Positions 18,605 to 61,069 of a stretch of 64,000 bases of DNA are shown one piece after another. Made by a program: the position numbers and the translations under genes. This DNA is from a candidate division WWE3 bacterium (GTDB lineage Bacteria > Patescibacteriota > WWE3 > UBA101185 > UBA10185). The stretch's first letter is position 1, and the number at the start of each line of letters is the position of its first letter. The DNA lies in the NCBI GenBank assembly GCA_014729135.1, contig WJKK01000001.1:192593-256592 (forward strand), in the 5' to 3' direction. The notes beneath the pieces are model-generated. The model made no database searches, was not told the DNA's origin, and saw only the letters and a program-made list of their open reading frames with translations.

Positions 18605-18616
18605 TTTTGGCAATGT

Positions 18617-20049: not shown

Positions 20050-20053
20050 GGTG

Positions 20054-23029: not shown

Positions 23030-23035
23030 GGCCCC

Positions 23036-44028: not shown

Positions 44029-44059
44029 ACTGGAGGGATTATACAGGAGTTTTGGGGAT

Positions 44060-45043
44060 TTAAGCTGCAGGAAGGGCGTAGATAATTCCCATGACCACAA
44101 GTCCCCATAAAATAACCGTGAAAAACAAAGGCTTGTCTGAAAGCAGAACTCGTGCAGGTGATTCCCCCTCTTCGCGCTCATAAATAACGTACAAATAACG
44201 CGCTACTCCATAAATAACAACAGGAATAGTTAACATCATCCACTTGGGACTGCGCAAAGTAGAGGGCAAAAGCTCCGTTAAAATGTTGCCGGCCCCTTGA
44301 GGTGAAACCTGAAATGTAAAAAGAGCATAAGTCATAATGCATAAGGACGAAGACATTGAAATCATGCTGTCCAAAAGTGTATCCGGATAATGACGAAGCG
44401 TTTTTCGAGTGTCGCCGTCCTCTTCGTTAAATTTTCTCAAAAGCGTTTTCTCGGATCGGCGCTTTCCAAAAGCCATTAAAAGTGAAAGACCAATAGTAGT
44501 TAAAGCCAACCAGGAGGAGAGCGATGTGTTGGTTCCAAAGCCTCCTGCAAAAACGCGAATTACAAATCCTGTAGCCACAACTAAAGAATCTAAAATGATT
44601 ACGTTTCTAAAGTAAAGTGAGTACAAAAACTGCATGACGATGTAGGCAATGACGCTTAAGGTGAAGAAGGTTCCCACCGCGGTGTAGGCAAAGACCAGAG
44701 CAAAAAGGATTAAGCCGACTGCAATTACCCAGGCTGTTTTGATTCCTACTTTTCCGGAGGCAATAGGTCTGTTCTTTTTTACAGGATGTTTGCGGTCTTT
44801 TTCTACGTCGTTAATGTCGTTGATGAAGTAAGCTCCCGAGGAGATTGCGGAGAAAGCAATGAAGCATTTAGTAGCTGTCCAGATGTTTTCGTCTGAGAAC
44901 AAAGCTCCGGAAAAGAAGGGAGCTGCAAAGACGCTTAGGTTTTTAAGCCATTGGCGCGGGCGCGCGGTTCTTACAATTTGATATAGTTTTCCGATCATCT
45001 TTAGCATTAGCTTAATGATAGAGTTTTCGCCCTTTTTTCGCAA
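44060..45043 (-). CDS. UbiA-family prenyltransferase (decaprenyl-phosphate phosphoribosyltransferase-like)
   Basis: RPRQWLKN and the NDINDVEKD Asp-rich motif. Polytopic membrane protein. The true start may be a downstream Met. Confidence 0.65.
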   Translation of the reverse strand: MRKKGENSIIKLMLKMIGKLYQIVRTARPRQWLKNLSVFAAPFFSGALFSDENIWTATKCFIAFSAISSGAYFINDINDVEKDRKHPVKKNRPIASGKVGIKTAWVIAVGLILFALVFAYTAVGTFFTLSVIAYIVMQFLYSLYFRNVIILDSLVVATGFVIRVFAGGFGTNTSLSSWLALTTIGLSLLMAFGKRRSEKTLLRKFNEEDGDTRKTLRHYPDTLLDSMISMSSSLCIMTYALFTFQVSPQGAGNILTELLPSTLRSPKWMMLTIPVVIYGVARYLYVIYEREEGESPARVLLSDKPLFFTVILWGLVVMGIIYALPAA

Positions 45044-45106
45044 CTTATTTAAGTTTTGCCGGTAATGTTGAATTAGGCTAAATCAATTATCATACTTTAA
45101 CTTTTC

Positions 45107-45841
45107 CTACTTCATTATCGACTCATCACTGTCATCAAAAACATATCCAAGCCCGTAAACAGTTTTAATCAAATTAGCGGCATCAAATCCCATTTCCTCA
45201 AATCTTTCCCTTAAGTAACAAACATAAACAGAAACTATTTTAGGGTTATCTATTTTTTCATCTCCCCAAACCGATTCCAAGATTTGTTCTTTAGATAAAC
45301 GAAATCCCTTGTTTGTAACCAGCAATTCCAAAAGGTCAAATTCCTTTCTTCGCAAATGAATTTCCTCACCTTTATAAATTAAAATTCGATTCCAAAAATC
45401 AATTGAAACGTCGCCAATTTCGTAAATATTGTTTTTGGGAATTGCTGGAGTGGTTCTTCGAATTAAAGTTTTTATTCTTGCGCACATTTCCGCGGGTGAA
45501 AAGGGGCGTTCTAAACAGTCATCTGCTCCGCGTTTTAGGCAACTTACTCGCCCTGAAACTCCTCTTTTTTTGTTTAGCATTAAAATGGGAATATCTGTTC
45601 CTTTTTGGCGCAGCATTTGGCAAACTTGGGAGCCTCGCATACTTGTAAGATCGTTATCTAGAATTATTAGACCGTATTTTTCAGAAGTTGCTGTATACAA
45701 GGCATAGGAAGCTTCTTTTTCAATATCGCAGACATACTTATCGGCAAGACACTTTTTCAGGTCTTTTATTAAATTCTTATTGTCGGCAATTATTAATATT
45801 TTCATTTTGGTTGTTGTAGCAACCTCCTTCATCTTTAACAT
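45107..45841 (-). CDS. OmpR-family response regulator (receiver + winged-helix output), orphan
   Basis: Receiver domain (KILIIADN...LIILDNDL) and a C-terminal trans_reg_C domain (LRRKEFDLLELL...YGLGYVF). No adjacent histidine kinase. Confidence 0.75.
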   Translation of the reverse strand: MLKMKEVATTTKMKILIIADNKNLIKDLKKCLADKYVCDIEKEASYALYTATSEKYGLIILDNDLTSMRGSQVCQMLRQKGTDIPILMLNKKRGVSGRVSCLKRGADDCLERPFSPAEMCARIKTLIRRTTPAIPKNNIYEIGDVSIDFWNRILIYKGEEIHLRRKEFDLLELLVTNKGFRLSKEQILESVWGDEKIDNPKIVSVYVCYLRERFEEMGFDAANLIKTVYGLGYVFDDSDESIMK

Positions 45842-46054
45842 ACAAATATTAAGGGATTATTAAGCCAAAATGGGAAATTGAGTGTCTGATATGTTCCCGA
45901 TACTATGGTTATAGGATAAAGTTATTAAGAAATGTTTTACAGTAACTCTAAAAATTTATATCAAAATATCAAAACATTTCCTTTTAGGCTTATTTTCCCG
46001 CTTTTTTGCAAATTTTCACCAAAATCCCGAAAACTCAAATGCTAAAATACAACT

Positions 46055-46423
46055 ATGCCCAAATTTCTTTACACAATACTTTTAACTAACATTCTCTCTT
46101 GGGCCGCATTTTTTAGAATCATCTTTACAAAAACACCAAACACAACAAATGCACTCTTTATTTTTCTCATTTTGTTTGGCCTTTCCACGTTTTTAACCAC
46201 CTCCGTTTTTAGCTATTTTCTAAAATCCCGTCAAAAGCACGGCAAATTCCACAATCCCCGTTTAACCTATCGCCAAGGCCTAAAATTCTCACTAATTCTT
46301 AGCCTAGGCCTCTCCACACTCCTGGGACTACGCCTTTTTAAAATCCTAAATCTCCTTACAGGAAGTATATTCCTACTCCTTTTCGTATCTGTTCTAATGG
46401 TCACAACTTCAAATCGGCGCTAA
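46055..46423 (+). CDS. Hypothetical membrane protein
   Basis: 122 aa with 4 TM segments. Confidence 0.35.
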   Translation: MPKFLYTILLTNILSWAAFFRIIFTKTPNTTNALFIFLILFGLSTFLTTSVFSYFLKSRQKHGKFHNPRLTYRQGLKFSLILSLGLSTLLGLRLFKILNLLTGSIFLLLFVSVLMVTTSNRR

Positions 46424-46942: not shown

Positions 46943-47605
46943 ATGACAGCCATGACATCCAAAGAAAAAATGGAAAAAGGGTGGAAAGCACGTGAGGCTC
47001 ATGAATTTGAGGAAGCGGAAAAACTGCTTCGCGAAGCCCTGGAAGAATTTCAGGAAAAAGAAGATTGGTTTAATGCTACTGAATGCTTGAATCACTTGGC
47101 CTATTTAAAAAAGATTCAATCAAAACTAGCCGCAGAGGAGGGTTTTTCTTTGGCAAAACAGGGCCTTGAGCTGGCGGAAAAACATGGCTCTAAAAAGGTT
47201 CATGTTTACAGGTCTTTAAGGTCACTTTCCGATGAACAGGGCCGTTTTGAAAAGGCTTTGGAGTATGCGGAAAAGTGCTTGGAAGGTTATGAAAATCCCA
47301 TGAGTAGGGCAGATATGCAAAGTCATATAGCTTTGTATAAAATGCGAACGGGCCGTTTGGAGGATGCAAAAGAGTTAGCGGAACAGGCTTTAACGACTCT
47401 GGAGACTCATTGGGAGGAGGAACGGGAGCCTCATCGTTCGATTTGGAAGACAAGTGCTTTATTGGTTCTAGGGTTGATTGCTTACAATGGAGGCTTTCTA
47501 GATCAGGCGCATGATTACGGCGAGGAAGCTCTGGAGTTAGCGGAGAAGGCCGATTCAAAAACGCGAATTTTGCAAGCTAAGCAATTCTTAGACCTTTTTT
47601 CTTAA
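46943..47605 (+). CDS. TPR-like helical repeat protein
   Basis: 220 aa, all-alpha with repeated LA/EKAL segments. Confidence 0.35.
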   Translation: MTAMTSKEKMEKGWKAREAHEFEEAEKLLREALEEFQEKEDWFNATECLNHLAYLKKIQSKLAAEEGFSLAKQGLELAEKHGSKKVHVYRSLRSLSDEQGRFEKALEYAEKCLEGYENPMSRADMQSHIALYKMRTGRLEDAKELAEQALTTLETHWEEEREPHRSIWKTSALLVLGLIAYNGGFLDQAHDYGEEALELAEKADSKTRILQAKQFLDLFS

Positions 47606-47704
47606 GTGAGGCTCGAGAAATAACAAAGACACCCTTATGAGACCTAAGATTTCTCAAGTTCTATTTTGATTTCCCTCTAATGCAAAATGTGATAAAATGC
47701 ATTC

Positions 47705-48292
47705 ATGAGTAGTCGAGAAAAATCTGCCAAAAAGTTTCCAAAAATATCAAATTTCAAATTCTCTCAGGAGGACTACATCCTCTATCTTTTAAATCAACCC
47801 GCTTTAAAAGAGGCAGATTTTTACAGAATCAATAAGCTGGCCTTTTTTGTGGAATTTGGGTACATCTACAAAACATCCCGTGAACTAACTCCCCTTAAGT
47901 ACGCCGGAATTAACAAAGGCCCCGTAATAAATGACTACACTTCTCTGTTCGCTAAGATGGAAGCTAAAGGGCTTATTAAAATTTCTTCAGGGTTTAAAGT
48001 TTCTCCGCTTGTGAAGCCTTCCAAAAACCCTCCAAAGGATGTGAGAGCATGCATTGATTCCCTAATAGAGGAGTATGCATCCCTTTCAACATCTAAGCTA
48101 ATTGCTTTGTCACATGAAACAGATTCTTACAAAATAGCTACTGAAAATGAAGAAGTGATGGGTGCCGTCATAGACAAGAACCTGGCTCATTTAGAGGCAT
48201 TTTTTGAAGATTCTGCCGATCGTTTAGATGAAACGACAGTTAATGCGCTTCCTCCTGTAGAGACCGAACTTGAAGCGTATGCCTTTGGATGA
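47705..48292 (+). CDS. Panacea-domain (DUF4065, SocA-like) putative antitoxin
   Basis: NKLAFFVEFGYIYKTSRELTPLKYAGINKGPV resembles DUF4065. Overlaps the downstream RelE-like gene by 23 nt. Confidence 0.5.
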   Translation: MSSREKSAKKFPKISNFKFSQEDYILYLLNQPALKEADFYRINKLAFFVEFGYIYKTSRELTPLKYAGINKGPVINDYTSLFAKMEAKGLIKISSGFKVSPLVKPSKNPPKDVRACIDSLIEEYASLSTSKLIALSHETDSYKIATENEEVMGAVIDKNLAHLEAFFEDSADRLDETTVNALPPVETELEAYAFG

Positions 48293-48593
48293 GGCGTATA
48301 CTATTCTTGTAAGTAGAAAATTCAATAAATATGTTAAGAAAAAACTTCCTCGTTCTTTAAAAAAAGCTTTAGATCGCAAGGTAAAGTTTCTGGCTCAAAA
48401 CCCCTATCATACAAGTCTCAATACAAAAAAGTTAAAGGTTAGTCGAAGGCGTTTAAGAGACTTAGAGGTGGATCATGTTTATGAGTTTCGAATAAATATG
48501 GGATTTAGGTGTGTCTTTTACGTTAGGAATAAAACCAAAACTATTATTTTGGCTAGGGTTGGTAATCATGGGGATGTTAGGACTTGGTTTTAG
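48270..48593 (+). CDS. RelE/ParE-superfamily toxin-like protein
   Basis: Shows KKALDRKVKFLAQNPYHTSLNTKKLK....HVYEFRINMGFRCVFYVRNKTKTIILARVGNHGDV, which follows the RelE/ParE pattern. Confidence 0.5.
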   Translation: MKRMPLDEAYTILVSRKFNKYVKKKLPRSLKKALDRKVKFLAQNPYHTSLNTKKLKVSRRRLRDLEVDHVYEFRINMGFRCVFYVRNKTKTIILARVGNHGDVRTWF

Positions 48594-50008: not shown

Positions 50009-51508
50009 ATGCCCATTCAAGAACAGCAATTAAACAATAAGCAGCACGCCGTTCCCCAAAACATTATGCAAGTGGAGTTTAAGCTAATTGGGGAGTTGAC
50101 GATGCGTCAGTTTGTTTATGTGGCGGTTTTCGCTGTAGCAGCTTACATGGCTAAGCTGTCTGTTCCGCAGCCTTTTACTTGGTTTTTTGTGATTGGTTTG
50201 GCCTTAACGGGATTGGCTTTGGCTTTTGTGCCTTTTGAGGAGCGGGGTTTAGACGAATGGATTGTAAACTTTTTAACTGCAATTAGTTCCCCCACGGAGC
50301 GGATTTGGCGTAAGGAAGCGGAGGTTCCTTCGGTTTTTGCTTATGAGCAGAATCTTAGGTTTGTTCAGCAGGAGATGATTACGTTGGCTCCAACGGCAAG
50401 TCGTCGTAAGTTGGAGGAGTTTTTGCATCAGCGTAAAACTCAGGTTGATGATGACGATTATCTTGACATTCCCGAGCAGGAGTATATTGACAAGGTTCGC
50501 GAGGCTTTTAAGGATGTTGAGGAGGTTTCAGAGGAGGGTTTTGAGGGAGAGACTATGGAGTCTTCTGTTAAGGTAACCCATGAAATGGAGCAAGAGGAGT
50601 TAGAGATGCAGGAAATGCAAGAGCATTCTGACCAACCGGAGCAGGGGGAGCTTGAGGAGAAGCCGGAAATAGAACAAGAGGTACCTCAGAGTCAAGAGGA
50701 GGAGTTGAAAGAAGAGCAACTCCCACAGGAATCTCCTGTTGAGAAGGTTCAGGAGGAAGAAAAAGTGCAAGCAGCTGAGGTTCTTCAGGAGGCTTCGCAA
50801 CAGGAACCTCCCGCAATAGAAAAGGCAAAGGCCACAGTGCAGCAGGTTCAAACGAAAACGCCTTCTGCTGCAGCATCAAAAACACAGGAATCTCAAAAAA
50901 CAAAGCAGCAAGCAGAAAAACAGGACAAAATGTCCAAACTAATTCAATCTCGCTTAAAGAAGTCTCGTCTTAAACCGCTAGATGAAGGAAAGTCAGGTCA
51001 AGCACAGCTTCGTCCGGTGTCCACACACTCCGGAAGGAAATTTGTGAACCTAACTCCCGGGCAAGGTGAAATTATACTCCCAATTAGGGGAGAAAAAGTT
51101 CTTCCCACAGTAGAAGAAACTGAACGACAACTTTCGGAAAAAACTAAGAAATTGCAGCAGCTTTTGGATAAGGACGGCAAAGACGATGGTGCCAAAGATG
51201 GCAAAAAACTTCATGTTCGAAAAATCCCTTCGCTAGTTCAACGCCCCAATGTTTTATCAGGGGTTGTAAAAAATCGCAAGGATGAATATTTGGAAAACGT
51301 TGTAGTTGTAGTTAAAAATGAAGAAGGCGAACCGGTACGAGCTCTAAAAACCGACAAACTAGGCAAATTCTTAATTTCATCGCCGCTTCCAAACGGCAAT
51401 TACAAAATTGAGGTTGACAAGACAAATGAAACCAGCCTTTCCTTTGATATAATTCCTTTTAAGGTCGAGGGAGGTGTTTTGCCTTCTTACGAAATTATAG
51501 GTCGTTAA
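50009..51508 (+). CDS. Membrane protein with 2 N-terminal TM helices, long E/Q-rich low-complexity linker and C-terminal CarboxypepD_reg/PEGA-like beta domain
   Basis: TM segments near the N-terminus. Acidic repeat region (EEQ/QEE). C-terminal VVKNEEGEPV...GNYKIEV. Confidence 0.4.
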   Translation: MPIQEQQLNNKQHAVPQNIMQVEFKLIGELTMRQFVYVAVFAVAAYMAKLSVPQPFTWFFVIGLALTGLALAFVPFEERGLDEWIVNFLTAISSPTERIWRKEAEVPSVFAYEQNLRFVQQEMITLAPTASRRKLEEFLHQRKTQVDDDDYLDIPEQEYIDKVREAFKDVEEVSEEGFEGETMESSVKVTHEMEQEELEMQEMQEHSDQPEQGELEEKPEIEQEVPQSQEEELKEEQLPQESPVEKVQEEEKVQAAEVLQEASQQEPPAIEKAKATVQQVQTKTPSAAASKTQESQKTKQQAEKQDKMSKLIQSRLKKSRLKPLDEGKSGQAQLRPVSTHSGRKFVNLTPGQGEIILPIRGEKVLPTVEETERQLSEKTKKLQQLLDKDGKDDGAKDGKKLHVRKIPSLVQRPNVLSGVVKNRKDEYLENVVVVVKNEEGEPVRALKTDKLGKFLISSPLPNGNYKIEVDKTNETSLSFDIIPFKVEGGVLPSYEIIGR

Positions 51509-51511
51509 AAT

Positions 51512-52210
51512 ATGCCCAACATAACTGCCACAACACAACAACATTTAGACATTGAGGACATTCGGGATGATTTGGTAGTTTTAAAAAATGGGTCAGTGGC
51601 AGGTGTTTTAAAAACAACCGCAGTAAACTTTGATCTTCTTTCCGAAATTGAGCAGGATGCCATTATTGCAGCTTTTTCCATGCTTATTAATTCCATTACC
51701 TTCCCCATTCAGATTGTAATTCGGTCAAAAAAGCTTGATATTTCGGGCTATTTGGAAAAGGTGGTTCAGGTGGAAAATAAGATTGAGGATAAGTTACTGA
51801 AGCACCAGGCAGAGGCTTATCGTCGTTTTGTTCAGGAGACGATTCAGCAAAATGAGGTTTTGGATAAAAAGTTTTACATCATTATTTCCACAAATAAGCC
51901 TATCAGTAAGGAAGGTAGTGCTAATCCATTTGAGTTTTTCACTCGTTTGTTTGGGATGCATACTAAACGTAGGAGTTTTAACGTTGACAAGTCTTTGCGG
52001 GATGCAAAAATGGAGCTTGAGCCTAAATTGGGACATGTCCAAAAGGAGTTTCGCCGAATTGGAGTTAAGGCTGAGAAGTTGACTACTCAGGAATTAGTTG
52101 AGCTTTATTTTGATATTTACAATCCTAGTGCGGTGCATGGTCAGCGGATTCAGACGGATATAAATGATTATCAGACGGCTATAGTTAATCCGGCAATTTT
52201 TGAGGAGTAG
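51512..52210 (+). CDS. Hypothetical protein immediately upstream of virB4-like gene (possible T4SS accessory component)
   Basis: 232 aa, only 4 nt after the preceding gene. Contains DIRDDLVVLKNGSVAGVLK..VNFDLLSEIEQDAII. Confidence 0.3.
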   Translation: MPNITATTQQHLDIEDIRDDLVVLKNGSVAGVLKTTAVNFDLLSEIEQDAIIAAFSMLINSITFPIQIVIRSKKLDISGYLEKVVQVENKIEDKLLKHQAEAYRRFVQETIQQNEVLDKKFYIIISTNKPISKEGSANPFEFFTRLFGMHTKRRSFNVDKSLRDAKMELEPKLGHVQKEFRRIGVKAEKLTTQELVELYFDIYNPSAVHGQRIQTDINDYQTAIVNPAIFEE

Positions 52211-52275
52211 TTGGTTTTTAGAAACGTCATTCCGTGCTTGACACTGAATCAAGGAACCAAAAAGAAAAATAAAAA

Positions 52276-54717
52276 ATGAACATACCGTTTTTAAACAAGA
52301 AAAAAGAAGATAAAGCAGCAGAAAATCCGGGAGAGCAAATGGAAAACAAAGAGCCTGCAGAAACTCTAGCAGAAGGCATGGTAAACATTCAGGACATCAT
52401 TGCTCCTTCTGCAATTGAAGTTGATTTTAACCATATAAAAGTAGGTAACTCTTATTACAGAACGCTTTTTGTTTCAGGTTATCCTCGATTTGTAGGCGCT
52501 AACTGGCTGGCTCCCGTAATTAACTTTGAACACACGCTGGACATTTCCATGTTCTACTATCCGGTGAAAGCCAAAATGATTTTGGATGATTTGCGTCGTA
52601 AGATCACGGAGCTTGAGGCCACTTCCATGTCGGACCGCGAAAAAGGCAAGCTAACAGATCCCGCGGTTAAAGCTGCCCTCGAAGACGCCAATGCTTTACA
52701 AGAACAGCTGGTAAAAGGTATAGAAAAGTACTTTCAGTTTTCGTTTTACATTACAATTCCGGCATCGTCACTAGAAGAACTTAACAACGTTACAGCCAAA
52801 CTGGAATCCACGCTAGGTTCGCTGCTTCTAATCTCAAAGACGTCTACACTCCAAATGGAAGAGGCCTTTCAGTCGACGGTTCCAACAGGAATGGACAAAC
52901 TTCTAATTACTCGAAATATGGATACAACAAGTTTGGCTACAACTTTCCCATTTACGTCATCTGAGCTGACAATGGATGAAGGCATTATGTATGGGATTAA
53001 TCGGCACAATGGTTCGCTTATCATTTTTGATCGGTTTTCGCTGGAAAACGCTAACTCGGTAGTTTTTGCTAAATCCGGTTCAGGTAAGTCTTATTTTGTA
53101 AAGCTGGAAGCGTTGCGGTTAATGGTTTTTGGTGCAGAAGTCATGATTATTGATCCTGAAGAAGAGTATCGTACTTTGTGTGAAGCCGTAGGTGGAAACT
53201 ATATTGACTTCTCCGCAAATTCTCCGCAAAAGATTAATCCCTTTGACCTGTCAGGCATTGCGGTTGAGGGTGAAAATGAGCTTGGTCAAAAGCTGCTGTC
53301 GCTTCATACGCTGCTGAAGTTAATGATGGGGGATTTGAATCCTACGGAGGAGGCCATTCTGGACCGTGCTTTAATAGAGACTTATCGTCTAAAGGGAATT
53401 ACTTCCGATCCGGATACGCAAATGACAAAGGAGCCTCCGGTTATGGAGGATTTGTACAAAGTGCTTTTAGGCTCTGCAGAGGAGGAAGCTCATGGGATGG
53501 CGGAGCGTTTGGAGAAGTATGTTCGCGGGTCGTTGGCGGGAATCTTTGATTCGCAGACTTCTGTTGACCTAAATAGTGGAATGACTGTCTTTTCAACCAA
53601 GAATTTAGAGGAGCTTTTGCGACCCATTGCTTTTTACATTATTTTGGACTTTGTTTGGACTACGATTCGTCGCGATTTGAAAAAGCGTATTCTAATTGTT
53701 GAGGAGGCGTGGTACTTGATGGAAAATGAGGATAGTGCTCGCTTTATTTATGGTATTGCTAAGCGTGCTCGTAAGTATTACTTGGGGTTAACAACGATTT
53801 CCCAGGACGTTGACGACTTTTTGAAGTCTGAGTACGGAAAGGCTATTGTTACGAACTCTTCAATCCAGGTTTTGCTAAAGCAGCATCCGGCAGCTATTGA
53901 TTTGGTGGCAGAGACGTTTTACCTGTCAGAAGGAGAGAAGCGTTTGTTACTTGGTGCCGGTTTAGGTGAGGGGTTGTTTTTTGCAGGTACAAATCACGTA
54001 GCTATTCGTATTAAGGCTTCCCCGGAGGAGCATAAGTTGATTACGACAAATCCGAAGGAGCTTTTGAAGTTGCGTAAGGAGGGGATTATTGAGGAGAAGA
54101 AAAAGACGACTCCGCAGAAGAAGTACAAGTCTTTTAAGCCAACGGATACGGATAAGTATGAGACGTTTGATGAGAGTGGTAAGCCCAAGGAAGGATATAA
54201 GCCTCAAAGTAAGGAGGTCAAGTCAAAGTCATCTCAGGCGCAGGGATCTAAGAGCATCGCCTCGAATTCACCACAAGCACAGAATAATGTCATCCCGGAC
54301 TCGATCCGGGATCAACCTTCCAAAGAGGTCGCCTCGAAAGAAATGTTGCAGCGCCCCGCTCCGGAGAAGGCTCCCCAGAAGACGGACCTGCCTCCTCCAA
54401 CAAAGCCCCCAAAGCCCCCGGAAATTAAACCACCGGAAATAAAGCCGCTTGAGATAAAAAAATCACAAAATCACAGTAATGCGCAGGGCACTCCAAGGCA
54501 GCAACCGCAGAAACAAACCCCAGCGAAAAAACCTGCCGATAATAATACAGTGAAGCCCCCGCAAAGAGAACAGCCTCAACCACAGCCACAGACACAAGCG
54601 GAAAAGCAAAAGCCAAGTGAAACCACCATAATTGATCAAATGAACACATTGCGCCCGCAGAAAGGCGACTCTGCCGGTAGTATAGACCTAAAACCTCCTC
54701 AAAATAATAACCAATGA
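52276..54717 (+). CDS. virB4: VirB4/TrsE/TcpF-like type IV secretion (conjugative transfer) ATPase
   Basis: N-terminal VirB4-type domain (GNSYYRTLFVSGYP..WL), Walker A AKSGSGKS, IIDPEEEY motif, and Walker B ILIVEEAW. C-terminal Pro/Lys/Gln-rich tail with PPEIKP repeats. Confidence 0.75.
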   Translation: MNIPFLNKKKEDKAAENPGEQMENKEPAETLAEGMVNIQDIIAPSAIEVDFNHIKVGNSYYRTLFVSGYPRFVGANWLAPVINFEHTLDISMFYYPVKAKMILDDLRRKITELEATSMSDREKGKLTDPAVKAALEDANALQEQLVKGIEKYFQFSFYITIPASSLEELNNVTAKLESTLGSLLLISKTSTLQMEEAFQSTVPTGMDKLLITRNMDTTSLATTFPFTSSELTMDEGIMYGINRHNGSLIIFDRFSLENANSVVFAKSGSGKSYFVKLEALRLMVFGAEVMIIDPEEEYRTLCEAVGGNYIDFSANSPQKINPFDLSGIAVEGENELGQKLLSLHTLLKLMMGDLNPTEEAILDRALIETYRLKGITSDPDTQMTKEPPVMEDLYKVLLGSAEEEAHGMAERLEKYVRGSLAGIFDSQTSVDLNSGMTVFSTKNLEELLRPIAFYIILDFVWTTIRRDLKKRILIVEEAWYLMENEDSARFIYGIAKRARKYYLGLTTISQDVDDFLKSEYGKAIVTNSSIQVLLKQHPAAIDLVAETFYLSEGEKRLLLGAGLGEGLFFAGTNHVAIRIKASPEEHKLITTNPKELLKLRKEGIIEEKKKTTPQKKYKSFKPTDTDKYETFDESGKPKEGYKPQSKEVKSKSSQAQGSKSIASNSPQAQNNVIPDSIRDQPSKEVASKEMLQRPAPEKAPQKTDLPPPTKPPKPPEIKPPEIKPLEIKKSQNHSNAQGTPRQQPQKQTPAKKPADNNTVKPPQREQPQPQPQTQAEKQKPSETTIIDQMNTLRPQKGDSAGSIDLKPPQNNNQ

Positions 54718-55412
54718 TCGGCTTGGTTTACGGAAAAAACGACCTTGCAATTCAAAAGGCGTTAAAAACTCTGAAAACAAAAATAGACCCTCAAGAAAAA
54801 ATTGAACTAAATTTAGAAGATCTTGAGCCCACTCATTTTGCAGATTCCGTTTTAACGCCCAACATGTTTGGTTTCAAAAATTTAGTTGTAGCTAATGCGG
54901 ATGGCGTTGCCCAAAAGGAGTTCCTAAAGTTTATTGAAATTGCAGGAAGAGCGCCGGCGGAAACTTCCGTTGTTTTTGTGCTGCCTAAATCGCTGCGAAG
55001 TAACAGCAAGATTATCAAGGCAGTAAAAGCTTTTAAGGATGCCGAAATAATTAAGGTGGAGGAAGAAAAAGACTCCATTATTTTTGACTTTTTAGATGCG
55101 GTTTTTAATAAGAATCGACCAAAGGCATATGCAAGTTTAAAAAAGCTTCAGGACAAGGAAGAACCTCCGTTTAAAACGCATTCAATGTTAGTTTATCAGT
55201 TGCGAAATGTAGCAAAAACTAAGTTTGGGGCAAAAGTTTCGGCGCCTCCCTTTGTAAAGCGCAAGTTGGCAAAACAGGCGGAGAAGTTTTCGCAGGAGGA
55301 TTTGCTGGCTTTATACACTCATTTTTATGAAACTGATAGGGATATGAAATTGGGTTTGGTTCCTGATAACGTTTTAAATGTGGTGAGTACGGAGAAGGTA
55401 TTGGAGGTTTAG
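54714..55412 (+). CDS. holA: DNA polymerase III delta subunit-like (HolA), short
   Basis: N-terminus LVYGKNDLAIQKALKTLKTKI...NLEDLEP...MFGFKNLVV aligns with the HolA N-domain pattern (YG, NLS..DLE, FG..RLVV). ATGA overlap with virB4. Confidence 0.5.
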   Translation: MIGLVYGKNDLAIQKALKTLKTKIDPQEKIELNLEDLEPTHFADSVLTPNMFGFKNLVVANADGVAQKEFLKFIEIAGRAPAETSVVFVLPKSLRSNSKIIKAVKAFKDAEIIKVEEEKDSIIFDFLDAVFNKNRPKAYASLKKLQDKEEPPFKTHSMLVYQLRNVAKTKFGAKVSAPPFVKRKLAKQAEKFSQEDLLALYTHFYETDRDMKLGLVPDNVLNVVSTEKVLEV

Positions 55413-55460
55413 GAGGAGCTTTGTGTTTAAGGCGCTTAGCCAACGGAGGTTTAGAAGCAA

Positions 55461-56201
55461 ATGTTTAAAAAGAAGGTTTACATAAAAGACGAGTCGTTTG
55501 ATCCCATTTATAAAGCGCGTAGTAAGAATTTCATGCTTAAAAGTCGCCTCATTCCGGTTACGCTGATTTTGGGGGGCTTGTCATTGCTTGGTTCGCAGGT
55601 GGTTTTTCCTTTGGTTTACTTTACGACTCAGGAGGATAAGGTGCAGACACAGCAGGCTAAAAAGGTGGAGTCTAGTGTTTTAGGTGCGGTTAGTGGCTTT
55701 AAGGATTTTGAGTTTGAGGAGTTGTCGGAGGAGGGGGTTGATACAGGAGTAGCTGAGGAGTCCCCGAAAGATTTACCGAAGTTTTTCACACTTTCTATTC
55801 CGGCCTTGGGCATAGAGGATGCTTTAGTTGAGGTTAATGCTGCTTCCCTGGATCCAAAGGAGGCTTTGGGGCATTATCCCGGTTCAGGATTGCCGGGAGA
55901 AACCGGGAATAGCTTTATTTTTGGGCACTCGGTTCTTCCCTGGTTTTTTAATCCCAAAAATTACAAGACTATCTTTTCAACGTTGGATCAGCTTAAAGTG
56001 GGAGATGAGATTTTTATTGAGTTTAATGGAGCGCGTTTAACTTATCGTGTGGAGACTTCGGAAATTTTGTATCCCGATCAGGTGGCTCCTTTAAAGGAAG
56101 TGAAACCTGACTTTTTAAATGAGTCTACGATAACGCTTATGACGTGTGTTCCTCCGGGGACTAAGATGAAGCGTCTCCTTGTTCATGCGGTTTTGGAGTA
56201 A
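55461..56201 (+). CDS. Sortase family transpeptidase
   Basis: N-terminal TM anchor, FGHS (His), TLMTC (catalytic Cys) and a conserved Arg near the C-terminus. Confidence 0.7.
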   Translation: MFKKKVYIKDESFDPIYKARSKNFMLKSRLIPVTLILGGLSLLGSQVVFPLVYFTTQEDKVQTQQAKKVESSVLGAVSGFKDFEFEELSEEGVDTGVAEESPKDLPKFFTLSIPALGIEDALVEVNAASLDPKEALGHYPGSGLPGETGNSFIFGHSVLPWFFNPKNYKTIFSTLDQLKVGDEIFIEFNGARLTYRVETSEILYPDQVAPLKEVKPDFLNESTITLMTCVPPGTKMKRLLVHAVLE

Positions 56202-56207
56202 GGGGTC

Positions 56208-57251
56208 TTAGGCAATCGTAGAAACTTCCGAAGACTTCTTAAAAATATCCTCAATCATCTCCTCCAGTGGAATTGACACAATATCAATATCCAAAACACT
56301 TGTATGTTCTATAACAGTAGTAATAAGTTGCGAAGCTTCCTCTTTTTTAACCTCATAAACAAGCGCATCCTCCTCCGGAATTTCCTCCACAATCTCTGCA
56401 TAACAAACCTCTACTTTTTCCGGCGCCTTTTCAAAATAAAACTTAATAAATTTGCGTTGATTATATTCAGCCATCAACTTTTCAAGATAGTCGTCATATA
56501 CTTTACGCCCTTCATTAATAACAATAACGCGATCGCAAACTTTTTCCACGTCGTCCATGTCATGGCTGGTTAAAATTAACGTGATATTTGAATTGTGTTG
56601 TATATCTCTTAAGAAAGTTCGAATATTCTTCTTTGAGGTTATGTCCAGGCCTATTGTAGGCTCATCCAGAAAAAGTACTTTAGGTCTGTGCAGGATTGCT
56701 CCAATAAGCTCCATTTTCATGCGTTCTCCCAAAGAGAGTTTTCGTACACGTTTGTTCAAAAGTTTTTTAATGTCTAAAAGTTCTGCAAGTTGATTTAAGT
56801 TTTTCTTATATTCAGAATCTTCCAGCTGATAAATGCTTTTAATAAAGTCAAAATTTTGTTGTCCTGTTAAATCCCACGAGAGTCCCGATTTATTACCCAT
56901 AACAAGCCCTATTTGCCTTAAAAACTCTCGATTTCTTTTAAAAGGGGTATATCCCAATACTTTTGCCTCTCCTTCAGAGGGGTAAATTAATCCCGTGAGC
57001 ATTTTTGTAGTAGTAGTTTTCCCTGCTCCATTAGGCCCGAGAAAAGCCAAAGATTCTCCCTCTTCCACCTCAAAGCTGATGTTTTTTACAGCTTCCACAT
57101 GTTTGTAATTGGGTTTAAAGATTCCCGTTACAATGTTTTTATTGGTTCTGATTTTAAAGTTTTTTGTTAGGTTTTTAACTTGTACTGCTTTTTCCATTTT
57201 AGTATGTTTCTTTTGCCTAAGAGGAGGCTGATGAGTATTTTCGTAGAGCAA
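56208..57251 (-). CDS. ABC transporter ATP-binding protein (ABC-2 type)
   Basis: Walker A GPNGAGKTT, signature LSLGERMK, Walker B LFLDEPT. Confidence 0.85.
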   Translation of the reverse strand: MLYENTHQPPLRQKKHTKMEKAVQVKNLTKNFKIRTNKNIVTGIFKPNYKHVEAVKNISFEVEEGESLAFLGPNGAGKTTTTKMLTGLIYPSEGEAKVLGYTPFKRNREFLRQIGLVMGNKSGLSWDLTGQQNFDFIKSIYQLEDSEYKKNLNQLAELLDIKKLLNKRVRKLSLGERMKMELIGAILHRPKVLFLDEPTIGLDITSKKNIRTFLRDIQHNSNITLILTSHDMDDVEKVCDRVIVINEGRKVYDDYLEKLMAEYNQRKFIKFYFEKAPEKVEVCYAEIVEEIPEEDALVYEVKKEEASQLITTVIEHTSVLDIDIVSIPLEEMIEDIFKKSSEVSTIA

Positions 57252-58065
57252 TTATCCAGCCTACTTGTTTAAGAATCAAGAATATTACGGCTACGGTGGA
57301 TGCTAGTAAAAGCGCCGGGAGAGGTTGCGTTTTTCCTAGAAGTACGGAGGTGCTTAGACGAGCGGCTATTAAGGAGGGAATGACTGTTGTGAACGCTGTT
57401 TTTAGTTTATCCGGAAAACCTTCAAACGGAATATCTTTTAAGTCTCCCAAAGCCCCTGAAACTTGAAATATTTGTCTGGCATTGCCTATAAAGAAAGTTG
57501 GTAGCGCAAAAAGAAATCTAAACCCGTGCCATGCCAATTGTCCCAGAATAAAGAGAATTATTGCGGTTACAATTCTGATTCCGTTCGTGTGAATCTGAGA
57601 CCAGTCAATAAATAAGGAAATCAGTATTACATTAGGTAAACTATCCTTTATTCTGTTAACAATACTAATTTCTTTGAAAGTAACAAAGAAAAGTGCAGGA
57701 ATTGGTCTTGAAAGTATAATATCCAGATCACCCTCTCTAATTGCATTGATAAGAAAGTTCAGGTTATTTGTGTTCCATAGCCAGTCAACATAGAAATTGA
57801 ACTGCGCAATAAACACAAGAATAAGCATTTCTGTTTTCGTGTATCCTGCAAAAGTATCTACGTTTCCATAAAGAATTTGTATGAATAAAAGTTGTGTGAG
57901 CGTGTAGAAAAGTGTTGAACCTAGTCCTGCAACATTCTCAAAAAAATACGCTGTTTGTACTTTATAAGAATTAATTGCATTGTTTTTTAAAATGTTAAGT
58001 CTCAGTTTAAGTTCTTTCCACATTAGATACCTACTCCATCGTAATTTTTTAAAGCCTTTTCCCAT
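57217..58065 (-). CDS. ABC-2 family transporter permease
   Basis: 282 aa with 6 TM segments, in an operon with the ATPase. Confidence 0.6.
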   Translation of the reverse strand: MGKGFKKLRWSRYLMWKELKLRLNILKNNAINSYKVQTAYFFENVAGLGSTLFYTLTQLLFIQILYGNVDTFAGYTKTEMLILVFIAQFNFYVDWLWNTNNLNFLINAIREGDLDIILSRPIPALFFVTFKEISIVNRIKDSLPNVILISLFIDWSQIHTNGIRIVTAIILFILGQLAWHGFRFLFALPTFFIGNARQIFQVSGALGDLKDIPFEGFPDKLKTAFTTVIPSLIAARLSTSVLLGKTQPLPALLLASTVAVIFLILKQVGWIIALRKYSSASS

Positions 58066-58805
58066 AAGATTTTACCTAGAGTTAAGAGAGCTACTGCCCA
58101 TCCTGCTGAAATTAGAAGCATTATTAAAACGCTTTGCAATGGCTCGGTGCCTTGCACAATAACAGTGGGATAGTAAGTGAGTACCGGAAAGAAGGAGATC
58201 TCTGTTAATTTTTTAATAAGAGGTGGGAAGTAACTTAAGGGTATTAACGCACCCGACAAGAGCCTCCTTGTGTGTTCAAAGACGTTTTTTAAGCTGCCTG
58301 CTTCCGGAGTATAAAAGCCCACAGTTGCCATGATTATGTTTACACCTAAGCCGGTTAGCGTTGTTAATATTATAGAGGTCAGGGCTAAAGGTAGGTATAG
58401 TAAGCTTTTTGGTGGCTGTAGATAGATTCCCACGGTTAACAAAATGATTGCAAAAAAAGCTACGGTTCCTTTTCTGCCTATATAACCCGCAAACAAGTAT
58501 TTAATAGTGTCTATTGGCTTTAGCAAATAATTAGATAGCTCGCCTCTTTTAATTAATTTTTGAATTCTTCTGCCAAAACGGGTTCCATTAAGAAAGGTTA
58601 TATCTACAATTGCGCTGGATATGAGAAAGTAGGAGATGGTTTTTCGTGCTTCAAAGATTTCTCCGTTGTCTTGCGTAACCACGACCCAAAAGATTATTAG
58701 GAAGCCTAAGTGGATTGATTTTCTAATGAAATAGGCAACAACCTCACTCGGATATGAAAATATTTCTTTAAAATTAAATTTGATAACGTCGTAGTAGACT
58801 TTCAC
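58023..58805 (-). CDS. ABC-2 family transporter permease
   Basis: 260 aa with 6 TM segments. Overlaps the next permease gene. Confidence 0.6.
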   Translation of the reverse strand: MKVYYDVIKFNFKEIFSYPSEVVAYFIRKSIHLGFLIIFWVVVTQDNGEIFEARKTISYFLISSAIVDITFLNGTRFGRRIQKLIKRGELSNYLLKPIDTIKYLFAGYIGRKGTVAFFAIILLTVGIYLQPPKSLLYLPLALTSIILTTLTGLGVNIIMATVGFYTPEAGSLKNVFEHTRRLLSGALIPLSYFPPLIKKLTEISFFPVLTYYPTVIVQGTEPLQSVLIMLLISAGWAVALLTLGKILWEKALKNYDGVGI

Positions 58806-58858: not shown

Positions 58859-59383
58859 TTAGTTTAAGAATTTGTCCTCAAAGCTTTCAAGGGCAAGGTT
58901 GCGAGGGCCCAGATAGACATAGTAAATCCCTCCACCCAGAATCACCAAAGATGCAACCAAGGACAGCGTTATACTTAGGATTCCTGTGTCGGGTACTGTG
59001 CTTTCCGTTGTTTCCGGAGTAGTGGTAGTTGTCGTTGTTGTTCCTGTTGCAGTTTCCTCTTCAGTAGCGCCATCCGCTCCTGCTAAGACAGAGCGACGGG
59101 GAACAGAAACCTCCGTTTTATTTAAGTCTGCAAAAGGACTCTCAGCAGAATCTTCTTCTCGGGCATCTTTATCTCCTGCCACTGCTCCCTTTTCATCGGA
59201 GGCCTCAACATCCTCCTCCAAAGACTCCACACGCCCCATAGAATCTCCCGTTGACTCCTCAATATCCAGCTGATAAGTAGGGTAAGAAGTTAAATAGTAA
59301 ACCGCTGCAAAAACTCCCAGCGAAATAATCAAAGTAACTAAAAATGTTTTAAATCCGTTTTTTGCTTGGTAAGAATTATTCAT
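58859..59383 (-). CDS. Hypothetical membrane protein with poly-Thr tract
   Basis: N- and C-terminal TM segments with a TTTTTTTTPETTEST run in the middle. Confidence 0.35.
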   Translation of the reverse strand: MNNSYQAKNGFKTFLVTLIISLGVFAAVYYLTSYPTYQLDIEESTGDSMGRVESLEEDVEASDEKGAVAGDKDAREEDSAESPFADLNKTEVSVPRRSVLAGADGATEEETATGTTTTTTTTPETTESTVPDTGILSITLSLVASLVILGGGIYYVYLGPRNLALESFEDKFLN

Positions 59384-59572
59384 AGGCAGGCTTCAAATTC
59401 TTTTTCAAAAATTCTGAATCTATTGTAACACTAAACTCCCTACTAAAATCAAGTACTTTCCTGGAGTAGTTCAAGTTGTCTGTGGAGTTCACGTCTTTGA
59501 ACAGCAATAATAAGAGAAAGTTTAAGCTGGTGACAACTATGAAAAGGCCTAGGTAAAAGAATTTTCGCATGT

Positions 59573-60301
59573 TTAATTTTCCTCCTTTTTTGGAGTTTCT
59601 TGGGTTGAATTTGTTACGGGAGTTTCTTCAGGGGCGTTTTCAGTGCCTTTCTCTGAGTCCGGCAAATTATAAAGTTTTAGTGAAAGTGATATTTGATCTT
59701 CTTTAGAAAGCTTTTTAGTAAAAGAAACACTCACATTTTCAACGGAAAGGCTAAGTGGACTTGCCTCAATGCTTTTTAGCAGGCTATCCAGATTTTTAAA
59801 AGATCCTTCCAAAGAAACTGTCATCTTTGTGTAATTGCCTCCTCTTTCTGAAAAGTTAACATCTTCCAGTTTGTAGGCGTGGGGAGAAACTAAAAGCAGC
59901 ACCTCTACAATTTCTTCATCGCCATAAACCTCCCCGGGAATAGCTTCGTTTAAAGCCGGTAGATAGGGCTCTACATCTGTATAAACATGGTTTTTTTGCT
60001 GCGCTGTGTTTAAAGTTTCTGCAAATTCTACATTTTTTGCCTGTGCTTCACGAAAAAACTTATATTTTTTGTAGAGGGCCTTTGTAGCTGGGCGTGTTCC
60101 AAATGTTCGCAGCCCAAAAATATGCAAAAACAAAAGGAGTACATACAGGTCATGATAGGCTCTAAATGATATAGGTGCCTTTTTTCTTTCCCGCTTTTTT
60201 AGCTTTTTTCTCTCTTTGCGGGCTTTTTTTTCCATTTCCTTTTGGATTTTTCGCTTAGCCTTTTCTATTTCTTTTTGTTCTTTTCGTTCTGCTTTATTCA
60301 T
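59573..60301 (-). CDS. PilO-like type IV pilus assembly protein (tentative)
   Basis: Lys-rich N-terminus, single TM, periplasmic domain. Follows a PilN-like gene. Confidence 0.3.
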   Translation of the reverse strand: MNKAERKEQKEIEKAKRKIQKEMEKKARKERKKLKKRERKKAPISFRAYHDLYVLLLFLHIFGLRTFGTRPATKALYKKYKFFREAQAKNVEFAETLNTAQQKNHVYTDVEPYLPALNEAIPGEVYGDEEIVEVLLLVSPHAYKLEDVNFSERGGNYTKMTVSLEGSFKNLDSLLKSIEASPLSLSVENVSVSFTKKLSKEDQISLSLKLYNLPDSEKGTENAPEETPVTNSTQETPKKEEN

Positions 60302-60346
60302 TTTAGTTTCCTTTTCTTGCCTTTGCTGCTGTTTTTCCGATTACCC

Positions 60347-61069
60347 CTACTCCTGCTTTAGAGAAGTGCGAACCGACAGCTCATACACATTATCCTCCTT
60401 ATCTAAACTAGCCGACTCCAATGTAATTGAATCCACCAGGCCACTTTCCAGAAACCTTTCCGTTAAAAGCGAAAAAGTCAGTGGAGAAGGAGTTGCTCCT
60501 TTAAAAGCTGCCGTATTAGCATTTAAATCAAATGAAGTAAATTCAAATCCTGTGCCACTTGCAGAATTCAAAAATAGCTGGGCATAAGGTGTTAAATCCT
60601 GCGAAGTAGTTTTGTACTTTTTAAAAAGCTCCACCTTTTCGGATAGCCGAGTTAGTGTAGTAAGAGTTTCCGCGTATTCTTCCAGATTTGTAGCCTTGGC
60701 ATTTAAAGCCTCTTTTTCCTGCGAAATTTTGTAGTTAAAAAACATATTTCCCAAAGTTAAAAGAATAAACAGCGCCGTTAAAGTCAGTATAATCACCTGA
60801 GCCGACAGCACAAAAACGGGAGTTTCATAGTAATATCTAATATCCTTTTTAAAGCGTTCTTTTTCCTGTGGGTATAATTCCTTTTTTAGAAGGTTGGGAT
60901 CATTAATTTCAAAGTCGGGGGGTGTTTTTGAACGTGAAAATTTATTTTGCAGAATCTGCAGAGGCTTTTTCAGCAGCTTTCTTAGACTTTTCTCCAGCTC
61001 CTCCGGATTTTCCTGCAGTTTTCTTAGCTTTTCCTGAATTTTTGAGATAGGCAGTGACTTTTTGGGCAT
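60347..61069 (-). CDS. PilN-like type IV pilus assembly protein (tentative)
   Basis: Cytoplasmic N-terminus, single TM (VFVLSAQVIILTLTALFILL), periplasmic coiled-coil plus beta domain. The annotated start overlaps the rpsT 3' end. Confidence 0.3.
   Translation of the reverse strand: MPKKSLPISKIQEKLRKLQENPEELEKSLRKLLKKPLQILQNKFSRSKTPPDFEINDPNLLKKELYPQEKERFKKDIRYYYETPVFVLSAQVIILTLTALFILLTLGNMFFNYKISQEKEALNAKATNLEEYAETLTTLTRLSEKVELFKKYKTTSQDLTPYAQLFLNSASGTGFEFTSFDLNANTAAFKGATPSPLTFSLLTERFLESGLVDSITLESASLDKEDNVYELSVRTSLKQE

Follow-up and report, generated by a model that had tools for sequence, protein, structure and literature searches.

A PrgI/VirB3-TrsD-VirB4 gene triad on a WWE3 chromosome as a probable type IV secretion module with an extended VirB3-family protein

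Introduction

What is a gene for a VirB4-type ATPase doing on the chromosome of an ultrasmall, host-dependent bacterium if neither a relaxase nor a coupling protein is encoded beside it: is it what is left of a conjugative element, or the core of a secretion or uptake system that the bacterium itself maintains? The question is raised by positions 50009-56201 of a 64,000-nucleotide stretch of DNA, hereafter the window, from a candidate division WWE3 bacterium (GenBank assembly GCA_014729135.1, contig WJKK01000001.1, positions 192,593 to 256,592 of the forward strand), in which an earlier note had described a gene for a VirB4-like type IV secretion system (T4SS) ATPase, preceded by two genes for partner proteins and followed by holA and a sortase gene. 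The analysis presented here indicates, with considerable confidence, that the locus is chromosomal, has been passed on by vertical inheritance and encodes the energising inner-membrane module of the Patescibacteria-type T4SS of this WWE3 bacterium, a system derived from those of the mating-pair formation class FATA (MPF-FATA). Its three-gene core, consisting of a membrane anchor, a detached N-terminal piece of VirB4 and the ATPase, is a real and ordinary member of a system that has already been described.

That system has been surveyed by Quinonero-Coronel et al. 2025 (PMC12102498), in whose work 2,425 VirB4 proteins, found in 2,407 Patescibacteria assemblies, make up a single clade inside monoderm MPF-FATA. 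Among the 3,035 genomes surveyed only 109 relaxases were found, and type IV coupling proteins (T4CPs) lay mostly far from virB4; the partner retrieved most often was TrsD, which is remotely homologous to the VirB4 N-terminus (2,272 homologues, 1,664 of them near virB4), and the survey further lists 1,649 PrgI/VirB3 homologues (880 near virB4), 480 VirB6 homologues, pilins near virB4 in 1,135 assemblies, and replication genes as frequent neighbours of virB4 (PMC12102498). The term “WWE3” does not occur in those supplementary table files of that paper that were searched. In Southlakia epibionticum, the T4SS, which has no recognisable coupling protein or relaxase, is essential for epibiotic growth as judged by transposon sequencing (Wang et al. 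2023, PMC10633639), and the essential genes include PrgI and TrsD homologues according to PMC12102498. The roles proposed for the Patescibacteria T4SS are effector delivery and nucleic-acid uptake (PMC11665869; PMC12857230; bioRxiv 10.64898/2026.06.21.733656). The novelty and oddness that the earlier note had attributed to the locus cannot be upheld, since a relaxase-free, chromosomal PrgI-TrsD-VirB4 system has thus already been described at scale (PMC12102498).

Results

Layout and setting of the locus

The five close-packed plus-strand open reading frames (ORFs) delineated by the earlier note were all recovered in the sequence at the same coordinates, as were the ATPase motifs, the 4-bp virB4/holA overlap and the sortase gene after holA:

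50009-51508, + strand: PrgI/VirB3-family membrane protein, 499 amino acids (aa) (Pfam PrgI; upstream of the TrsD and VirB4 genes)
51512-52210, + strand: TrsD/TraC-like protein, 232 aa (NCBIfam, PF26593, Foldseek)
52276-54717, + strand: VirB4 ATPase, 813 aa (NCBIfam conju_CD1110, Pfam P-loop_TraG, PDB 4AG5)
54714-55412, + strand: holA (DNA polymerase III delta), short 232-aa form (TIGR01128, DNA_pol3_delta_C)
55461-56201, + strand: membrane-anchored sortase, 246 aa (Pfam Sortase PF04203, TIGR01076)

The first gene, which starts 27 nt after proS, is separated by 3 nt from the second and the second by 65 nt from virB4, the stop codon of which shares the four nucleotides ATGA (54714-54717) with the start codon of holA; the sortase gene follows 48 nt past holA. 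Counts in a promoter and terminator scan of 48.5-56.4 kb were equal to or below those in shuffled sequence, so the scan lends no support to any operon boundary. The genes around the first three, hereafter the triad, are housekeeping genes according to Pfam/NCBIfam annotation (proS, holA, murJ, the dnaK operon, lepA), and the window, which also holds trpS/tyrS-type synthetase genes, a suf operon, hrcA-grpE-dnaK-dnaJ, lepA, gap, murJ and ABC transporter genes, is an ordinary piece of the small-genome chromosome of a WWE3 (Patescibacteria) bacterium. For each of the three proteins of the triad there is a database entry with 100% identity, in all three cases from a candidate division WWE3 bacterium and an 864-kb contig. 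With a GC content of 0.434 against 0.409 for the window, the triad is not a compositional island.

A VirB4 ATPase divided over two genes

Judged by its profile matches, the product of the third gene is a CD1110-family, monoderm MPF-FATA-like VirB4: NCBIfam conju_CD1110 is matched by aa 31-578 (E 1.6e-111, 373.9 bits, cut-off 325), Pfam P-loop_TraG with E 2.4e-28, and PDB 4AG5, the VirB4 C-terminal domain, by aa 229-590 (E 4.9e-54). The protein had been labelled “VirB4/TcpF-type”, of which the former half stands and the latter does not, the TcpF model reaching only 25 bits. The ATPase motifs reported for it are in place, with Walker A (AKSGSGKS) at aa 265-272 (53068-53091), IIDPEEEY at aa 291-298 (53146-53169) and a Walker B-like ILIVEEAW at aa 472-479 (53689-53712). 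The conserved core (aa ~31-590) is followed by a disordered P/K/Q-rich tail of 223 aa (aa 591-813), within which the PPEIKP motif is indeed present, in 2.5 copies at aa 714-728; its description as an unusual repeat does not hold, as Tandem Repeats Finder makes no call, leading to rejection of a true tandem repeat, and the tail is not unusual for the family because the tails of homologues are likewise rich in P/K/E/Q (78-222 aa long in the 20 of the 120 listed homologues in which the core-end motif could be located). More than 8000 VirB4 homologues were found, the best 120 of which are 63-100% identical to the protein and, where named, come from WWE3, Patescibacteria or an unclassified “bacterium”, while the best plasmid-borne VirB4 proteins, all from Bacillota or Actinomycetota, are less than 40% identical, the top hit among them being annotated as CD1110 family.

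The match of the ATPase to conju_CD1110 covers profile positions 180-735 only, and what belongs to the positions before these is encoded one gene upstream. The 232-aa protein, which had been considered to be of unknown function, turned out to be TrsD/TraC-like: it matches NCBIfam TrsD (E 7.7e-8) and VirB4_plasma (E 1.5e-11, profile positions 105-236), falls on positions 6-125 of CD1110 and 20-177 of TIGR00929, and has PF26593 (TraC-like) on record for all of its 120 listed homologues (63-100% identical, 230-242 aa). The VirB4 protein itself occupies later positions in all three full-length models (180-735 in CD1110, 286-893 in VirB4_plasma, 240-724 in TIGR00929), and because these matches are collinear and non-overlapping, genes 2 and 3 are read as one VirB4 split within its N-terminal domain. 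A PDB sequence search with the TrsD-like protein alone retrieved nothing, and only the fold comparison gave a match: with the AlphaFold model as the query, the top 14 Foldseek hits in the PDB were all R388 TrwK/VirB4 chains (probability 0.80-1.0, identity ~14%). Profile positions and predicted fold thus both identify the 232-aa protein as the counterpart, encoded as a protein of its own, of the initial portion of the VirB4 N-terminal domain.

A PrgI/VirB3-family protein with a long C-terminal tail

In the 499-aa product of the first gene, aa 15-98 match Pfam PrgI (PF12666; E 1.1e-8, 35.9 bits, cut-off 27), and the following parts can be told apart:

50102-50242, + strand: two-helix transmembrane (TM) hairpin of the PrgI domain, aa 32-78 (hydropathy and AlphaFold)
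50534-50890, + strand: acidic, E/Q/D-rich disordered linker, aa 176-294 (composition; predicted local distance difference test score, pLDDT, below 50)
51011-51103, + strand: conserved short motif HSGRKFVNL..GEIILPIRGE in a disordered region, aa 335-365 (48-sequence alignment)
51215-51499, + strand: C-terminal CnaB/transthyretin-like beta-sandwich, aa 403-497 (Pfam, AlphaFold, Foldseek)

The hairpin is seen both as hydropathy segments (aa 34-53 and 55-78) and as helices (aa 32-51 and 57-73, pLDDT ~94) of an AlphaFold model built with 48 homologues. Beyond it, the model has several helices up to aa ~167 and further ones at aa 295-319 and 368-392, with disordered stretches at aa 176-294 (acidic) and 320-365; E, Q and D together make up 40% of aa 160-330, and the linker at aa 176-294 has no secondary structure, varies in length and is unalignable among homologues. 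The short motif at aa 335-365 is disordered in the model despite its invariant residues (H340, G342, R343, L357 and P358, with their neighbours nearly so), and may tentatively be regarded as a putative partner-binding motif.

The predicted beta-sandwich (pLDDT 93-95) includes a Pfam CarboxypepD_reg match (aa 416-473, E 4.4e-7, 30.6 bits, slightly below the 32.3 cut-off), and PF13620 is recorded for most homologues of the protein. Its Foldseek matches in the PDB include UafA, CnaB2, SdrD-B, the transthyretin-like domains of carboxypeptidases D/N and the BcpA/SpaA pilin domains (E 2e-5 to 1e-3). Two TM segments and a long E/Q-rich linker had been proposed for this protein and are borne out, unlike the PEGA-like C-terminal domain proposed with them, the domain being of the CarboxypepD_reg type with a CnaB/transthyretin-like fold. 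PEGA belongs to the same fold group as the CnaB/transthyretin-like domains.

This architecture recurs: at least 281 homologues of the protein were found, which for the most part bear WWE3 or Patescibacteria names and with few exceptions carry PF12666 with PF13620, and the C-terminal module as such matches 554 cluster representatives (50% identity clusters) at E<=1e-10, nearly always as the very last part of proteins ~400-900 aa long. PrgI motifs are found at the N-terminus of 86 of 106 module proteins, only 2 of which have a TM segment past residue 120. Canonical VirB3 proteins are of 10-15 kDa, have a pair of TM helices plus a C-terminal helix, with N- and C-termini that are short and cytoplasmic, and are encoded beside virB4 (PMC12857230); the two TM helices, the helix following them and the adjacency to virB4 are matched here, whereas the size, 499 aa with an extension of ~420 aa, is not. 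The protein is therefore a VirB3-family domain in a new architecture and not a canonical VirB3. As no further TM segment follows the hairpin, the tail should be on the cytoplasmic side, i.e., the same side as the C-terminus of canonical VirB3. A 752-aa protein from outside the window (P0211, from a Patescibacteria metagenome-assembled genome), in which PrgI domain, linker and beta-sandwich are fused in frame to a TrsD-like protein, likewise suggests a cytoplasmic tail, although, being a single record, it may reflect a lost stop codon or an assembly error.

Conservation of the triad

Five related WWE3 loci (L001, L002, L004, L005 and L006) were compared with the window, with the triad being scored where a locus extends far enough upstream. 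It is present in all four scorable loci (L001, L002, L004 and L005) as PrgI plus beta-sandwich, TraC-like and VirB4 genes, the first directly upstream of the other two. In L004, L005 and L006, whose VirB4 proteins are 72-87% identical to the one in the window, the gene order is proS, the triad, holA, sortase gene, four small convergent genes and murJ, and the virB4/holA overlap is retained. In L001 and L002, whose VirB4 proteins are 68-73% identical, convergent dnaN, jag, yidC, rnpA and rpmH come after the triad, and neither holA nor a sortase gene lies within 10 kb of it; this is a neighbourhood of the replication-origin type that PMC12102498 reports as common. The triad is thus kept in two different flanking contexts and is under strong conservation, with the VirB4 core being 63-87% and the TrsD-like protein 63-86% identical over many WWE3/Patescibacteria (meta)genomes. 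As holA and the sortase gene follow virB4 in the closer sub-lineage (L004-L006) only, they are regarded as neighbours and not as parts of the T4SS.

Two insertions set the window apart from L004 and L005, one between yopX and proS, consisting of a tetratricopeptide repeat (TPR) gene and a SocA(Panacea)/ParE-like toxin-antitoxin pair (46943-48593, + strand), and one between the sortase gene and the gene of the VPDTG protein described below, consisting of an ABC-2 operon for an ATPase and two ABC2_membrane_6 permeases (56208-58805, - strand).

Components not encoded near the triad

About 75 ORFs over the whole window were scanned with Pfam and NCBIfam models, which revealed no VirD4/TcpA, relaxase, VirB6/TrbL/PrgH, VirB8, VirB1 or T4SS pilin, and a hydropathy scan of the window found no unannotated protein with at least five TM segments, in agreement with the earlier observation that no VirD4, relaxase or VirB6 is visible there. 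The same components are missing within +/-10 kb in L001, L002, L004 and L005. An adjacent relaxase together with VirD4, which had been named as the finding that would make the locus an ordinary integrative and conjugative element (ICE) or a plasmid remnant, is absent from the 50 kb upstream and 9 kb downstream of the locus as well as from +/-10 kb in these four relatives. Neither integrase or attachment borders nor a plasmid replicon were found around the triad, the sole recombinase gene of the window (14022-15629) being 34 kb off and past housekeeping operons. A pilin array, VirB6 and a wall hydrolase, which are accessory in Patescibacteria-clade T4SSs, are likewise absent from the window and from +/-10 kb in the four loci; their lack is not disqualifying, because such parts are reported as variable (PMC12102498). 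A 122-aa four-helix membrane protein (46055-46423) was considered as a VirB2-like pilin and rejected, as it matches no pilin family even at E<=1.

Downstream neighbours: holA, the sortase gene and a small membrane-protein cluster

The holA product, though short (232 aa), scores 93.7 bits against TIGR01128 (equivalog cut-off 80) and matches Pfam DNA_pol3_delta_C with E 3.5e-14. The sortase matches PF04203 (E 4.2e-22) and TIGR01076 (56.4 bits, cut-off 39.35); class E is its best class but remains below the cut-off (69 bits vs 160). It has a TM segment at aa 30-54, and by our reading of the sequence the catalytic His, Cys and Arg would be those in GHS (aa 155-157), TLMTC (aa 225-229) and RLLVHA (aa 238-243), respectively. 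Further downstream lies its candidate substrate:

58859-59383, - strand: VPDTG protein, 174 aa, candidate sortase substrate (four-ortholog alignment; VPDTG at 58982-58996)

This protein consists of an N-terminal TM segment, an acidic Thr-rich middle, VP[DN]TG, another TM segment and a conserved tail; V130, P131, T133 and G134, which precede the second TM segment, are invariant in the four-ortholog alignment. A motif scan of the whole window yielded no other credible sorting signal, the three other regular-expression matches being in short shadow ORFs. In L004-L006, the gene is convergent with and directly beside the sortase gene, and in the window the two are separated by the ABC-2 operon (56208-58805). 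Most likely, the sortase anchors the VPDTG protein rather than serving the T4SS. A reading of the VPDTG protein as a CD1107-like mobile-element protein was dismissed, as the match (E 0.03) is confined to a single one among the four orthologues and is probably compositional.

The VPDTG gene is itself part of a conserved four-gene cluster between the sortase gene and murJ (58859-61069, - strand, in the window; 13594-15499 in L004, 13485-15307 in L005, 4019-5970 in L006), encoding the VP[DN]TG plus TM protein, a 64-aa single-TM protein, a GspM/PilO-like protein and a TM plus coiled-coil protein. Pfam and NCBIfam scans gave a firm family assignment for none of the four; the GspM/PilO-like matches are weak but recurrent (three of four orthologues, best E 0.0017), and the cluster may form a small module for the envelope or for pilus alignment. 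A VirB8-like identity was also tried for the two 240-aa membrane proteins encoded at 59573-61069 and rejected, as profile searches against PDB sequences were empty and Pfam gave a weak GspM/PilO-like match for one of them.

The coupling of holA and the sortase gene to virB4, which the earlier note had regarded as an odd feature of the system, therefore comes down to neighbourhood, since L001 and L002 have the triad without either gene within 10 kb; that holA runs in the same direction as virB4 and overlaps it is put down solely to genome compaction in one WWE3 sub-lineage, and the sortase gene with the four-gene group is tied to the T4SS by proximity in that one sub-lineage.

Other features of the window

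Several other observations concern the window outside the locus. A large serine recombinase gene (14022-15629, - strand) is overlapped at its 3' end by a tRNA-Asn gene (13989-14063, + strand), and beyond it lie genes for a TrmB-like protein and a terminase small subunit (17410-17907), several ORFs without a family match and a gene for a 996-aa protein (20054-23044) that matches nothing in Pfam or NCBIfam; the region 13989-23044 looks like the remnant of a phage or other element integrated at a tRNA gene. A 1417-aa protein (8439-12692, - strand) with an N-terminal signal-like hydrophobic segment and no Pfam/NCBIfam match may be a large episymbiont surface protein. A staphylococcal-nuclease homologue with an Excalibur calcium-binding domain (26543-27550, + strand) is possibly secreted and relevant to nucleotide scavenging. 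A Fic/DOC family protein (30428-31507, - strand), a 4-TM holin-family protein (32978-33316, + strand; Phage_holin_4_2, E 4.5e-29) and a tRNA-Ile with a UAU anticodon (tat; 2513-2589, - strand) beside tRNA-Ser(cga) are also encoded. The cumulative GC skew has its minimum at ~44000-46100, and genes switch from mostly the - strand to mostly the + strand at the intergenic region 45842-46054; a replication origin near the locus was considered and is not claimed, as DnaA-box matches are scattered and none falls within 45842-46054.

Discussion

The locus among known systems

The likeness to the Patescibacteria-clade T4SSs (PMC12102498, PMC10633639) extends to adjacent chromosomal PrgI/VirB3, TrsD and VirB4 genes, a FATA-like VirB4, the lack of a relaxase and of an adjacent coupling protein, and residence in a host-dependent ultrasmall bacterium. 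What differs is, in part, the surroundings: the flanks are proS and holA in the sub-lineage of the window and dnaA or dnaN in the Patescibacteria-clade systems, and the Southlakia locus (SEML1_0006-0019) has a VirB2-like pilin array, VirB6 and peptidase/lysozyme genes, whereas the window and +/-10 kb in the four related loci are without these. The ~420-aa beta-sandwich tail of VirB3 is the other difference, no mention of which was found in the papers on the Southlakia and surveyed systems.

A second comparison is with the CD1110 (CTn2-type) subclass of MPF-FATA and the TrsC-TrsD-TrsE arrangement of pGO1, of which the closest concrete example found is a cluster on the megaplasmid of Pontibacillus sp. 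ALD_SL1 (L007, NZ_CP062975.1). Its VirB4 shows 38.9% identity across 98% of the core and is divided in the same way, into a TrsD-like protein (30% identical, E 1e-27) encoded upstream and a shortened VirB4 of 621 aa; the split of VirB4 was therefore inherited from this FATA subclass rather than invented in Patescibacteria. The order there is a pilin-like gene (Mbov_0395 family), a hypothetical gene, genes for a 779-aa and a 116-aa protein, the TrsD-like gene, virB4 and a gene for a 1050-aa peptidoglycan endopeptidase, and the window lacks the pilin-like, 779-aa protein and endopeptidase genes; the protein in the VirB3 position is of 116 aa, compared with 499 aa here, and the two show no similarity by BLASTP. 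Both pGO1 and CTn2 are conjugative, with a relaxase and a T4CP. The Pontibacillus cluster (351362-361354), by way of a side observation, is relaxase-free, on a plasmid typed as “non-mobilizable” and beside flagellar genes, and may represent a non-conjugative T4SS in a free-living Bacillota organism.

Further comparisons are with R388, in which the TrwM(VirB3)-TrwK(VirB4) order is the same (PDB 7O41, 8RTB) and whose TrwK chains are the only ones matched by the predicted TrsD fold, although the R388 system is conjugative, belongs to a diderm and has both an outer-membrane core and a VirB4 in one piece, whereas the N-terminal part is a separate polypeptide in WWE3; and with Ced of Sulfolobales and ComB of Helicobacter pylori, which also have a VirB4-family ATPase without a relaxase and have been put forward as analogies for uptake in Patescibacteria (PMC11665869), but whose partner proteins differ.

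A plausible mechanism follows from these analogies. In R388, VirB3 and the membrane are both touched by the N-terminal domain of VirB4, with ATPase hexamers sitting at the channel entrance (PMC12857230), and by analogy with TrwM/TrwK the VirB3-family protein and the TrsD piece would tether VirB4 hexamers to the membrane, where ATP hydrolysis by VirB4 would drive the assembly of a channel and/or a VirB2-like pilus. VirB6-like protein, pilins, a wall hydrolase and possibly a T4CP would be encoded elsewhere in the genome, and, as in Southlakia, the system would most likely mediate an essential exchange with the host, i.e., effector export or macromolecule uptake.

Alternative explanations

The absence of an adjacent relaxase or T4CP, the housekeeping context and the vertical conservation together argue against a conjugation module, and the suggestion of the earlier note that this is a T4SS-like host-interaction or uptake module of an episymbiont has gained support from context, synteny and the match to the literature. 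Could the locus, nevertheless, be the decayed, non-functional remnant of a conjugative element (an ICE or a plasmid) from which the genes for the relaxase, the coupling protein and the channel have disappeared? The window holds just three T4SS genes, the nearest relatives outside the candidate phyla radiation (CPR) are on Bacillota/Actinomycetota plasmids, and mobile-element traces (YopX, the SocA/ParE pair, the serine recombinase by tRNA-Asn) do occur elsewhere in the window, all of which speaks for a remnant; yet the three ORFs and the ATPase motifs are intact, the identity levels of VirB4 and TrsD across WWE3/Patescibacteria are far above those of something decaying, the triad is found in two chromosomal contexts with housekeeping flanks syntenic in relatives, the plasmid homologues fall short of 40% identity, and the recombinase gene is at a distance of 34 kb, with the dnaK operon, lepA and gap in between. 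Such a remnant is thus highly improbable. Hardly less doubtful, although somewhat better placed, is a partnership in which holA, the sortase and the VPDTG protein would belong to the T4SS, with the shared ATGA tying secretion to replication and the VPDTG protein acting as a surface protein like PrgB/PrgC of pCF10. Gram-positive conjugative T4SSs do use sortase-anchored surface proteins, PrgB and PrgC being LPXTG adhesins, which counts for this explanation, as do the gene order and virB4/holA overlap conserved in L004, L005 and L006 and the replication genes often found near virB4 (PMC12102498). It has to contend, however, with L001 and L002, in which dnaN, jag, yidC, rnpA and rpmH take the place of holA and the sortase gene, with the three-gene ABC-2 operon separating the sortase gene from that of its candidate substrate in the window, with the single, probably compositional CD1107-like match of the latter, and with the GspM/PilO-like gene beside the VPDTG gene, which points to a pilus or type II secretion system-like context and not to a T4SS.

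Of a different kind, and a good deal more credible while still improbable, is the possibility that the system imports DNA or nucleic acid in the manner of Helicobacter ComB or Sulfolobales Ced, supplying nucleotides to an organism unable to make them. The lack of a relaxase and coupling protein would fit, uptake of host nucleic acids via a T4SS has been proposed for Patescibacteria (PMC11665869; bioRxiv 10.64898/2026.06.21.733656), a gene for a possibly secreted SNase-type nuclease (26543-27550) is present in the window, and NCBIfam yields weak CedB and CedD matches (E 1.3e-8 and 7.6e-6). The latter, however, with 34 and 25 bits where the cut-offs are 700 and 600, amount to generic VirB4/HerA similarity, and no sequence feature marks the direction of transport. 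Import is best seen as a sub-hypothesis on the substrate, which is compatible with the energising module proposed here.

Several points do weigh against the interpretation of the locus as an inner-membrane module of a Patescibacteria-type T4SS, or against parts of it. No VirB6, VirB8, VirB1 or pilin is found in the window or in the +/-10 kb covered in each of the four related loci, so that a complete machine in this genome is an assumption, and the function is extrapolated from a different class, Saccharimonadia. VirB4 is placed in the Patescibacteria clade by similarity ranking rather than by a tree, and the confidence of the TrsD model is no more than moderate (pLDDT 68), with Foldseek E-values of ~1e-3 and TM-scores of ~0.4. 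The virB4/holA overlap is kept in three loci, which makes a regulatory link conceivable, and CnaB-like domains and long acidic linkers are usually seen in extracellular proteins that span the wall, which fits poorly with a cytoplasmic tail.

A possible adaptor role of the VirB3 tail

The tail invites a further, more speculative reading, to which only a small probability is given, although one above that of the holA and sortase partnership: that in WWE3 and related Patescibacteria VirB3 has become a large adaptor, on which an acidic disordered tether of ~200-300 aa, the invariant motif HSGRKF...ILPIRGE and a beta-sandwich are mounted on the inner-membrane platform. If this were true and the tail were cytoplasmic, it could recruit substrates or partners, functionally replacing the missing coupling protein; if it were true and the tail were extracellular, this would be an unprecedented VirB3 topology, namely a wall-spanning adhesin of the T4SS. 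In the literature searched, no description was found of the extended VirB3 tail or of either of these adaptor alternatives. The tail is, nonetheless, a modest variant within a known system, and the only feature of the locus for which no prior description was found.

Conclusions

The locus adds no new principle, as the survey of 3,035 genomes already has the triad, the lack of relaxases and the chromosomal setting; what is added here is the identity of the 232-aa protein, the bystander status of holA and the sortase gene and the conserved tail of VirB3. The T4SS of Patescibacteria is, however, among the few machines that have been shown to be essential for the epibiotic lifestyle, which makes each well-annotated example of help, and the VirB3 tail in particular could offer a handle on how a T4SS without an adjacent coupling protein picks its cargo.

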